Below are positions 29,145-30,115 of a DNA stretch of 44,246 nt, in pieces (position 1 is the stretch's first letter; each line of letters begins with the position of its first letter). A program made the translations under genes and the position numbers. Under the pieces are notes generated by a model, which saw nothing but the letters and a program-made list of their open reading frames with translations, searched no databases and was not told where the DNA came from. Origin of the DNA: a virus; the IMG/VR virus record IMGVR_UViG_3300026522_000051, positions 1 through 44,246 of that record. One strand, 5' to 3'.

Positions 29145-30073
29145 TGGAGCGAGATAGGAGATTCGAACTCCCACCACCGGTTTGTGGTGTCTTATATGAG
29201 ATTTGAACTCAAATTTTTAGCCACATTTCATCATCATAACTTTTTATTAATTTCTTTTTTGATGGTAAATTATATTTAATACACCATTTGACAATAGCTT
29301 TGTCTGAAACATTATACATTTTTCCAATATCTACAAAAGATTTATTTCGTATTAACTATTTTAATGTATCCCTATCAGGATGAATACACACTTGTTGAAT
29401 TTTATGACTACATTCTATACAACGAGTTGCCCCTTTAGAAATTTCTTTTCCACAATCAATACAATAATAAGATTTTTTAGTTAAATCTTGAACTTGTCTT
29501 AAAGGATATTTTTTATTATCCTAAGTATGATAATCTCCTCGATTTAAATAATAAATCATACTTAAATCTAAATCATATTTATCAGCTATTTCTTTAAATG
29601 ATAAAGAAGTATTTTCAATATCATTTAAAATATCTAATAATAATTTAGGTGAATAATTCAAAAATATCTAATTCTAAGATTCAGATTCTAAAACAATATT
29701 ATATCCATTAGGACTAATAGAATTATACTACTAAATGTAAAAAGATTCTTTTTTATTCAAATCATTCTAATTACATTCTTCAAGAATTTGAAAAGAAAAA
29801 TTTTCTTTACCATATTTCTTTATAGCCTAACCAATTAAACTTTTTGTAGAATTACGACAATGTTCCAACCATCGCTATTCTATATGAATACTTTGACCAA
29901 TATAATTTTTACCATTAATTAAATTAGTGATTTTATAAATACCAATAGACATTATTTATTCCTCCTATTAATATTAAAAATCGAACTCAGTTAATTAACA
30001 AAATGTACCCAAAAGTTTTACTTAAACTAATAAAACGAAGACCGGGATGCTAACCGTTAAACACCAATCCCGC
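29145..30073 (-). tRNA. second split tRNA gene. Its anticodon loop is interrupted by an ~850-nt insertion carrying a GIY-YIG endonuclease gene.
   Basis: The 5' exon (30036..30073) is GCGGGAT-TG-GTGT-TTAACGGTTA-GCAT-C-CCGGT-CTTCG. The 3' exon (29145..29183) is ...ACCGG-TGGT-GGGAG-TTCGAAT-CTCCT-ATCTCGC-T-CCA. The acceptor stem pairs 7/7 (one G·U). CCGGT/ACCGG is complementary. Anticodon identity is ambiguous (TCG, TCC, TAC or CAC, depending on the junction). Confidence 0.45.
29209..29952 (-). CDS. GIY-YIG homing endonuclease (I-TevI-like, with a C-terminal CxxC...CxxC zinc finger and helix-turn-helix). It has ~9 in-frame TAGs.
   Basis: An AGGAGG site precedes the start. MSIGIYKITNLINGKNYIGQSIHIE*RWLEHCRN...ESFYI**YNSISPNGYNIV...CIDCGKEISKGATRCIECSHK...KSFVDIGKMYNVSDKAIVKWCIKYNLP matches the canonical GIY-YIG and NUMOD-like motifs. 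Confidence 0.65.
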
Positions 30074-30086
30074 ATTTTGTATAAAT

Positions 30087-30115
30087 ATTATAACAAAAAA
30101 TTTTTTAAAAGTCAA
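30087..30115 (-). promoter_or_regulatory. sigma70-like promoter (TTGACT, 17 nt, TTATAAT), placed to transcribe the 5' exon of the split tRNA
   Basis: The reverse complement reads TTGACTTTTAAAAAATTTTTTGTTATAAT. The tRNA 5' end lies ~15 nt downstream. Confidence 0.5.

Follow-up and report, generated by a model that had tools for sequence, protein, structure and literature searches.

Phage T4 SegB is a free-standing GIY-YIG homing endonuclease encoded in a tRNA gene cluster. The tRNA-like domain of tmRNA is made of the 5′ and 3′ ends of that RNA, which enclose a coding segment, and in tmRNA, MALAT1-mascRNA and mitochondrial "tRNA punctuation" the RNA ends are set by RNase P and 3′-end enzymes. 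Intron classes are defined by their route of removal: group I, group II/spliceosomal, and bulge-helix-bulge (BHB)/tRNA-endonuclease. I-Ssp6803I, which resides in a group I intron of tRNA-fMet, is a PD-(D/E)XK enzyme (PMC3384342, PMC3984707); archaeal and eukaryal systems include BHB introns (EndA; RtcB or Trl1) and permuted or split tRNAs (PMC4090602, PMC3978253); and T4 Pnk and Rnl1 reseal the anticodon loop of tRNA-Lys after its cleavage by PrrC (PMC3400036). The locus compared with them here lies in 44,246 nt of DNA of the IMG/VR virus record IMGVR_UViG_3300026522_000051 (the window), about 44 kb of a phage genome of roughly 200 kb. An 852-nt insert (30036..29185, minus strand), which carries a GIY-YIG endonuclease gene, splits a tRNA-Gly(UCC) gene exactly at C35/C36, inside the anticodon loop, and its sequence argues that it is itself a tRNA-like cloverleaf whose ends fall exactly on the insertion boundaries.

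The interrupted tRNA-Gly(UCC) gene and its tRNA-like insert

The uninterrupted form of this gene is present in a close relative. An exact 5′-exon search of IMG/VR found IMGVR_UViG_3300045988_151351 (L001), a 201-kb contig whose flanking DNA is 98.6% identical to that of the window and which holds the same two exons fused into an intact tRNA-Gly(UCC) with the loop CTTCCAA. The pairing of the two exons in the window is therefore not due to chance, and the junction C35/C36 and the anticodon UCC are fixed unambiguously. A first-pass annotation of the window had proposed a tRNA gene interrupted in its anticodon loop by a GIY-YIG gene, with both halves derived from one tRNA gene; the L001 allele and the PF01541 match given below bear this out. 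It had left the anticodon among UCG, UCC, UAC and CAC, and of these UCC (Gly) stands, the supposed ambiguity being removed. All features of the locus are on the minus strand, and the split gene occupies 30073..29145:

30115..30087, minus strand: sigma-70-type promoter, TTGACT-17-TATAAT plus TG extension, 13 nt 5′ of tRNA position 1
30073..30037, minus strand: 5′ exon of tRNA-Gly(UCC), positions 1-35, GCGGGAT-TG-GTGT-TTAACGGTTA-GCAT-C-CCGGT-CTTC, an exact match to the 5′ part of the intact L001 gene
30036..29185, minus strand: intervening element, 852 nt, from G+1 to CCA-3′, boundaries taken from L001; the same element is found in 12 analyzed loci
29184..29145, minus strand: 3′ exon of tRNA-Gly(UCC), positions 36-76, CAA-ACCGG-TGGT-GGGAG-TTCGAAT-CTCCT-ATCTCGC-T-CCA

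The promoter, already placed directly upstream of the 5′ exon by the first-pass annotation as one of a family, scores 11/12 and is the top site within 27700..31600; neighboring tRNA genes are also preceded by promoters that resemble it. With introns permitted, ARAGORN reports a single tRNA at 29145..30073 with an intron of 852 nt, and default ARAGORN and Rfam both miss the tRNA-Gly(UCC). The tRNA-Leu(caa) that default ARAGORN reports at 29145..29231 is an artefact in which the T-arm/acceptor mimic of the intron is fused with the real 3′ exon, so standard annotation here would lose a tRNA-Gly and add a false tRNA-Leu. A CACCAC/GTGGTG hairpin described earlier in the 3′-exon region is present in the window but is not found in the homologous loci, and for that reason it is probably a chance occurrence.

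The two ends of the insert can be laid out as a tRNA:

30036..30030, minus strand: acceptor-like 5′ strand GUUUUAU, 7/7 pairs with 29195..29189
30027..30015, minus strand: D-arm-like hairpin GUUU-AAGUA-AAAC; the UA before it corresponds to tRNA positions 8-9
30013..30001, minus strand: 5′ strand of a long "anticodon-arm" helix (UUUGG, G, UACAUUU), partner 29228..29216
29228..29216, minus strand: 3′ strand of the long arm (AAAUGUG, G, CUAAA), within the final codons of the open reading frame (ORF)
29212..29196, minus strand: T-arm UUGAG-UUCAAAU-CUCAU, whose stem includes the ORF stop UGA
29195..29185, minus strand: acceptor-like 3′ strand AUAAGAC, discriminator A, and CCA; the final base of the intron is the A of CCA

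The cloverleaf is built from the 5′ untranslated region of the endonuclease gene and from its last codons, and the long arm encloses the coding domain of ~750 nt. It starts at the first inserted base (G+1) and stops at the last (the A of N73-CCA), and RNAfold also gives cloverleaves for mini-introns. The 3′ half of this structure had been noticed before as a tRNA mimic and is confirmed at 29212..29185 (TTGAG-TTCAAAT-CTCAT-ATAAGAC-A-CCA); what had been overlooked is the pairing of its acceptor strand with the 7 nt that open the insert. The inner unit is not a canonical tRNA, its fourth arm closing ~750 nt with no 7-nt anticodon loop, and ARAGORN recognizes a tRNA in only 1 of the 12 isolated introns.

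The comparison set, drawn from gut, rumen and pig phages, consists of 12 loci with DNA context and comprises 11 distinct introns. The endonuclease family itself numbers 1120 proteins at E<=1e-20, and at least 120 full-length relatives are 57-72% identical, with human gut, pig gut and cattle samples among their sources. At all 12 loci the element lies within the anticodon loop of a host tRNA-Gly(UCC) or tRNA-Glu(UUC) and spans exactly G+1 of the acceptor-like stem through N73-CCA. The acceptor-like pairs include GTTTTAT/ATAAGAC, GTTTGAT/ATCAAAC, GTTTCAT/ATGAGAC, GATACAT/ATGTATC, GTTCTAT/GTAGAAC, GTCTTAT/ATAAGGC and GGTAAAT/ATTTACC. Across the 11 introns the acceptor (7 bp) and T (5 bp) stems are 99.2% paired, with change on both sides at 6 of the 12 pairs (100% paired and 4 of 7 pairs for the acceptor stem alone); none of 500 shuffles reached their covariation score, and pairing falls to 32-66% when the partner strands are shifted by 1-3 columns. 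For the D stem together with the arm that encloses the ORF the pairing is 97.8%, and 8 of 9 pairs have changed on both sides (95% and compensatory change at 3 of 4 pairs for the D stem alone), a count biased towards pairing by the hand alignment of these segments and their choice by eye. The long-arm sequence is wholly different between introns, yet the pairing is retained. Where the stop codon changes from TGA to TAA, the T stem compensates by a change of the partner from C to U (GC in 6 introns, AU in 5). G1-C72 and CCA are invariant across the 11 introns, and the inner CCA is retained though the host tRNA gene encodes no CCA in L002 and L166.

Deletion of G+1..CCA in silico leaves an ARAGORN-recognized tRNA (10 Gly(tcc), 2 Glu(ttc)) with a 7-nt anticodon loop at 12 of 12 loci. 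In L167 and L168 the insertion is at 34/35 (CTT/...CCA/CCAA), and the unit is again exactly G+1..CCA. Since the insertion point moves from 35/36 to 34/35 and the unit stays constant, the boundaries track the inner structure and not a place in the host tRNA. DNA-only copying needs no such precise ends, and it is chiefly on this ground that we argue for RNA processing at the ends and for restoration of a tRNA on removal.

The element is mobile between genomes, and the pattern is the signature of homing. The introns of L167 and L168 are 100% identical over 857 nt, and no alignment is possible for their flanks beyond the tRNA; L002/L004 (97.8%) and L085/L169 (92.9%) likewise carry related introns in unalignable flanks. 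Such sharing of introns by unrelated phage genomes argues for mobility. The window and L001 form an intron-plus/intron-minus pair in near-identical phages. The window's own variant (endonuclease 97-100% identical) is present in three more tRNA-Gly alleles, L213, L214 and L215, the last with the exons GCGGGGTTGATG.../...GTAGTGAGGGTTCGAATCCCTTACCTCGC, which carry diagnostic single-nucleotide polymorphisms. In all, the GIY-YIG element was found in at least 15 independent contigs, in differing tRNA-Gly and tRNA-Glu alleles, in keeping with the recurring tRNA-targeted process suspected in the first-pass annotation. Sequenced bacterial and archaeal genomes gave 0 matches to a degenerate intron-3′-end pattern. 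Among cultured phages in GenBank no full-length relative exceeds 35% identity, and the DNA search there returned generic tRNA similarity only. A tRNA-like intron lacking the endonuclease was not found in IMG/VR, where the 4 true matches all carry the gene and 15 others are unrelated coding sequence.

The Logan contigs L213 (933 nt) and L214 (920 nt), and many others of 887-962 nt, hold the element and end within the tRNA exons. Such short contigs are consistent with the assembly-graph effect of a repeat common to several genomes, which agrees with mobility.

The gene inside the insert has the following parts:

29966..29961, minus strand: Shine-Dalgarno AGGAGG, 8 nt before the ATG, read from sequence
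29952..29209, minus strand: GIY-YIG (I-TevI-like) homing-endonuclease gene, 247 codons plus TGA (PF01541, phrog_7168)

Residues 4-85 of its product match Pfam PF01541 (E 7e-10, 39.5 bits, curated cut-off 22.6), and in PHROGs it matches the homing endonucleases phrog_7168 (E 1e-27) and phrog_314. A Zn_Ribbon_1 match is weak (E 0.001, under the cut-off), and helix-turn-helix (HTH) families give faint matches only, on its homologues. The C-terminal part of the protein is a putative DNA-binding region. The reading frame contains exactly 9 in-frame TAG codons, about the number estimated before, and no further stop until TGA; most other genes of the window have 0-3. In L085, L167, L168 and L169 the invariant Q of the IGQS motif is encoded by TAG, as are other Gln positions, and tRNA(cta) genes adjoin the tRNA clusters of L003 and L004 (ARAGORN finds no CUA tRNA in the 44-kb window). 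TAG at conserved Gln positions of homologues together with tRNA(CUA) in related contigs indicates that the TAG codons of the endonuclease are read as Gln. Borges et al. (10.1101/2021.08.26.457843) proposed that recoded in-frame stops delay an intron endonuclease until late infection, and this proposal fits a gene with 9 TAG codons. A GTTCRAWWTT motif, often doubled, precedes the ribosome binding site of the endonuclease (~29975..29990, minus strand, in the window; also L167, L170, L171 and L173), and it occurs as well in endonuclease relatives outside any tRNA (L173-175); possible explanations are a regulatory or operator site and a relic of a T-loop.

Proposed removal of the insert

The insert is neither a group I intron nor a BHB intron, and a classical self-splicing intron is not supported. 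Bacterial tRNA anticodon loops are known to harbor group I introns with homing endonucleases (PMC3384342, PMC3984707), which is what speaks for a self-splicing ribozyme here, either a degenerate group I intron or another kind whose core overlaps the ORF. We regard this as very improbable. Rfam found no group I (RF00028) or other ribozyme at gathering score in the whole window, and with permissive filters it gave no match at E<=10 over 26500..33000. With the junctions set by L001, the 5′ exon ends in C35 (not U) and the intron in A (not omega-G); elsewhere in the set the exon has a final C or U, and the intron invariably a final CCA. The non-coding RNA of the insert comes to 84 + 24 = 108 nt (the earlier figures of ~83 nt on the 5′ side and 25 nt on the 3′ side were roughly right), as against ~200 nt or more for a group I core, and the non-coding structure that is conserved is a tRNA-like cloverleaf, not P3-P9. 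Inspection and folding revealed no BHB (two 3-nt bulges, 4-bp helix) at the junctions; the flanks do not pair with each other, and folding places the inner acceptor stem directly at both junctions. No splicing endonuclease (EndA) was seen among the window ORFs scanned, the window being 44 kb of a ~200-kb phage. Nor is the insert a tmRNA: the pair 3:70 is U-A, U-G or C-G, the ORF starts with an ATG behind a Shine-Dalgarno sequence, and neither ARAGORN nor Rfam gives a tmRNA match over the intron.

We consider it moderately probable that the insert is removed from RNA by a 5′ cut made by RNase P, a 3′ cut made by a CCA-end nuclease and resealing of the tRNA-Gly by a ligase, and we infer each of these enzymatic steps. 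The features that bacterial RNase P recognizes are present in the inner module (an acceptor stem of 7 bp with G1-C72, a T stem of 5 bp, T-loop, NCCA), and a cut 5′ of G+1 is proposed on that ground. A precursor would be transcribed from the promoter at 30115..30087; bacterial RNase P would read the inner acceptor/T-arm/CCA module and cut at the 5′ splice site, leaving C35-3′OH; and a nuclease that makes CCA ends, for which RNase Z/BN-type or phage enzymes are candidates, would cut after the inner CCA, the 3′ splice site. The two tRNA-Gly halves would stay paired by way of the outer acceptor and anticodon stems, as a classical ligase substrate, until sealed by an ATP-dependent RNA ligase, for example the product of 14071..15447. 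The freed tRNA-shaped RNA would be the endonuclease mRNA, and its 9 TAG codons would hold back translation until a phage CUA suppressor tRNA is present. At the DNA level the endonuclease would cut intron-less tRNA-Gly/Glu alleles, and repair would copy the element in (homing). The genes of the window that bear on these steps are:

15447..14071, minus strand: phage RNA ligase gene, 458 aa, candidate sealing enzyme (phrog_968, E 8.5e-64, full length)
15467..16366, 18119..18931, 5852..6586 and 24707..26239, minus strand: further RNA-repair/handling genes

The match of the ligase to Pfam PF09414 is under the curated cut-off (E 3e-5) and its likeness to T4 Rnl2 among known structures is marginal (E 0.2); the PHROGs match is decisive. 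The further genes encode a DEDD/RNase T-family exonuclease, an RlaP-like nucleotidyltransferase, a metallophosphatase and a DUF2828/DUF7788 (TROVE-vWA-like) protein. In related contigs the tRNA clusters have homologues of the ligase, RlaP and DUF2828 no more than ~10 kb away, and DUF2828 directly adjoins a tRNA cluster or split tRNA in L002, L167, L198-L212 and L215. The zero-spacer tRNA genes of the related contig L084 (2406-2490/2491-2574) suggest that CCA/N junctions are normally resolved by tRNA-processing enzymes in these phages.

Several points weigh against removal by this route. The 3′ cut is its weak link and the least secure step: RNase Z/BN-type cleavage after CCA occurs in some bacteria, but CCA inhibits RNase Z in many Firmicutes, and none of the known bacterial enzymes is established as one that would cleave exactly behind an internal CCA in the host. 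The bias in the D-stem and long-arm count counts here as well, as do the D-loops of the introns, which mostly lack the canonical GG, and the first T-stem pair of the window's intron, which is U-U. The host loop of L166 is odd (UCUC/CAA, with C at position 33), and that host tRNA could be decaying. Joining of the tRNA-Gly exons is, moreover, a prediction from DNA sequence. Companion PD-(D/E)XK inserts, described below, lack tRNA-like ends; should they be spliced, this would be by another mechanism, which could act on the Gly insert too. Finally, endonuclease relatives are found free-standing between intact tRNAs or with tRNA-like 3′ elements (L087-L096, L173-175), so tRNA-like flanks could serve only to process or stabilize an mRNA.

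This last point leads to a reading that is less probable and still has to be taken seriously, namely that no splicing occurs. The element would then have knocked out a dispensable tRNA-Gly, and its ends would release, define or stabilize the mRNA in the manner of "tRNA punctuation" or be old host-tRNA remains. Phage tRNA genes are mostly non-essential. The free-standing relatives are ~40% identical (L087-L096); one of them, L087, has an acceptor/T-arm minihelix and CCA directly after its stop codon, and L173-175 are without the nested structure. The existence of an intron-less allele in a near-identical phage, the simultaneous interruption of three adjacent tRNAs in L083 and the non-canonical L166 loop point the same way. 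A mere knock-out, however, leaves unexplained the exact G+1 and CCA ends of a mobile DNA unit in every lineage and the constant 7-nt loop after excision, even where the insertion has shifted by one base. All 12 host exon pairs, in addition, are still recognized as tRNAs by ARAGORN, which recent homing could explain in part.

Companion inserts, a permuted tRNA-Tyr-like gene and other genes

The window contains a second split tRNA gene, interrupted, as had been claimed, by an endonuclease gene of another family:

28753..28211, minus strand: tRNA-Lys(UUU) split at 36/37 (U36/A37) by a 467-nt insert (28717..28251), from ARAGORN with introns and L001
28679..28257, minus strand: PD-(D/E)XK endonuclease ORF, 140 aa, I-Ssp6803I family (PF11645, E 8e-30)

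In L001 this tRNA-Lys(UUU) is likewise intact (loop CTTTTAA). The two tRNAs are not split at the same structural position, as had been thought: tRNA-Gly is divided at 35/36, tRNA-Lys(UUU) at 36/37 and the L167/L168 hosts at 34/35. Inserts of the PD-(D/E)XK type occur at 36/37 in tRNA-Lys (window, L176, L177) and in tRNA-Gln and tRNA-Asn (L083, 11617..13092), and they contain almost no non-coding RNA. The ends of the Lys insert are not tRNA-like; a helix UUUUCA/UGAAAA spans both junctions. As a rule, these introns end in three bases complementary, in reverse, to the anticodon, and their 5′ end pairs with position -4 onward; the anticodon stem is thereby extended to a helix of 12-13 bp with junctions staggered by 3 bp. 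I-Ssp6803I cleavage reportedly leaves a 3-nt overhang. RNase III was ruled out for these inserts by the stagger of 3 nt, not 2. They may be a second non-ribozyme intron class or merely mark dead tRNA genes.

In the 170-kb contig L083, consecutive tRNA-Gln, -Asn and -Glu genes (11617..14031) each contain an insert with an endonuclease gene, the three inserts measuring 830, 467 and 862 nt; tRNA-Asn is uninterrupted in the related contig L004. The ORF of the tRNA-Gln insert (11690..12469) is chimeric: its N-terminal part is of the PD-(D/E)XK type, 37% identical to the Lys-insert protein of the window, and its C-terminus is the zinc-ribbon/HTH module of the GIY-YIG enzyme (45% identical), which indicates that the nuclease domain was swapped on a common DNA-binding module.

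The extended helix suggests a further way in which the Gly insert might be removed, one that we think improbable: a phage-encoded or host endonuclease would excise it by way of the host anticodon arm or an extended helix, not the tRNA-like ends, as may be the case for the PD-(D/E)XK inserts, and a kinase/phosphatase plus ligase or RtcB would join the exons. The 12-13 bp stems and 3-bp stagger in tRNA-Lys, -Gln and -Asn accord with this, and RNA-repair genes are nearby, RlaP and the metallophosphatase in the window and an AAA_33+HD protein adjoining L167. However, the GIY-YIG intron, as read from its sequence, has no extended junction helix, the insertion varies with respect to the host tRNA (34/35, 35/36) and never with respect to the inner unit, and the splicing endonuclease that such excision calls for was not identified among the window ORFs scanned.

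A circularly permuted tRNA-Tyr-like gene lies at ~30478..30352 (minus strand) of the window, with its own promoter at 30528..30500 (minus strand), and also in L001 (2790..2930) and in L197-L212. Its order is anticodon arm, long variable arm, T-arm, CCTCCCC-A-CCA, a CTATAT spacer, GG(T/C)GGAGG-TA, D-arm and ACGGA, the whole being flanked by a leader/trailer helix AAGACTT/AAGTCTT. It is kept in 17 IMG/VR contigs, in which the loop is mostly CTGTAAA (canonical tRNA-Tyr CUGUAAA; CAGTAAA in the window), and both the anticodon stem (ACGGA/TCCGT to ACGGG/CCCGT) and the leader/trailer helix show compensatory changes. A conserved additional base breaks the 5′ strand of its acceptor. By its layout such a gene would need a cut at CCA/G1 and RNA joining, as the tRNA-Gly exons would; together with the PD-(D/E)XK inserts it raises the prior probability that joining capacity exists. 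The literature searched yielded no account of permuted tRNA genes from phages or bacteria. It is possible, and we put it forward tentatively, that these gut and rumen phages have a protein- or ribonucleoprotein (RNP)-based tRNA splicing that was unknown until now in the bacterial world, in which tRNA-shaped introns, PD-(D/E)XK inserts and the permuted tRNA-Tyr share RNA joining.

Other genes of the window include one for an 828-aa protein with Major Vault Protein shoulder and repeat domains (20557..23043, minus strand), which is unusual for a phage. Three paralogous ORFs (17229..18023, 23708..24652 and 3280..4188, minus strand) have repeated CxCxCG-type Cys motifs and a C-terminal nuclease-like region; one has a weak DUF2726 match and one has 5 in-frame TAG codons, and they are probably further selfish endonuclease genes. 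The ORFs at 9367..10881, 10980..11816 and 8105..8908 (minus strand), judged by eye, resemble nicotinamide phosphoribosyltransferase, ribose-phosphate pyrophosphokinase and NAD synthetase and look like NAD+ salvage/synthesis enzymes.

Comparison with known systems

The literature searched contains no description of tRNA-like or nested tRNA introns or of ribozyme-free phage tRNA splicing. We regard the anatomy of the Gly element as categorically new, and the excision mechanism is plausible and unproven. If it is true, removal by "tRNA punctuation plus ligation", which borrows RNase P and tRNA end-processing, would constitute a new intron class and, for a bacterial system, the first tRNA splicing that depends on protein or RNP, and phage RNA ligases and "RNA repair" sets would gain a programmed role besides defence. 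The element also bears on how a homing endonuclease colonizes a gene without a ribozyme and on the timing of endonuclease expression by recoded stops. Even without resplicing, a tRNA-shaped mRNA nested in a tRNA would be an unreported way to express a mobile-element gene.

As in the case of SegB, an I-TevI-like GIY-YIG enzyme is encoded in a phage tRNA cluster and its distant relatives are free-standing, but the gene at the Gly locus interrupts a tRNA gene and has a tRNA-like structure folded around it. With group I introns that carry homing endonucleases in tRNA loops (cyanobacterial tRNA-Leu(UAA) and tRNA-fMet/I-Ssp6803I, and those of Patescibacteria; PMC13011429, PMC3984707) the inserts share the site, mobility and enzyme families, and the Gly element shows the same presence/absence polymorphism between close relatives. 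It differs from them in lacking a ribozyme core, a U-G pair at the 5′ junction and a terminal G, in being nearly all ORF, and in that its conserved RNA structure is a tRNA look-alike with its termini at the junctions. The archaeal and eukaryal introns share with it the anticodon-loop site and predicted removal by protein or RNP and a ligase, and a permuted tRNA gene in the same genome is a further likeness. Unlike them, the Gly element has no BHB, lies at 35/36 or 34/35 and not at 37/38, belongs to a bacterial host system, and would have its junctions set by the tRNA-like fold of the intron and not by an exon-intron helix. In T4 repair a phage ligase acts on a tRNA broken in the anticodon loop, which is the step proposed here; the excision envisaged would be programmed instead of a response to damage, and the ligase of the window, a candidate only, is of another family (phrog_968). 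Like tmRNA, the Gly insert has tRNA-like ends with a coding segment between them; unlike tmRNA, it has no G3-U70, tag ORF or pseudoknots and encloses a normal gene with a Shine-Dalgarno sequence and ATG. It is distinguished from tmRNA, mascRNA and mitochondrial punctuation in being nested in a second tRNA, so that its processing would have to be followed by ligation of the exons.

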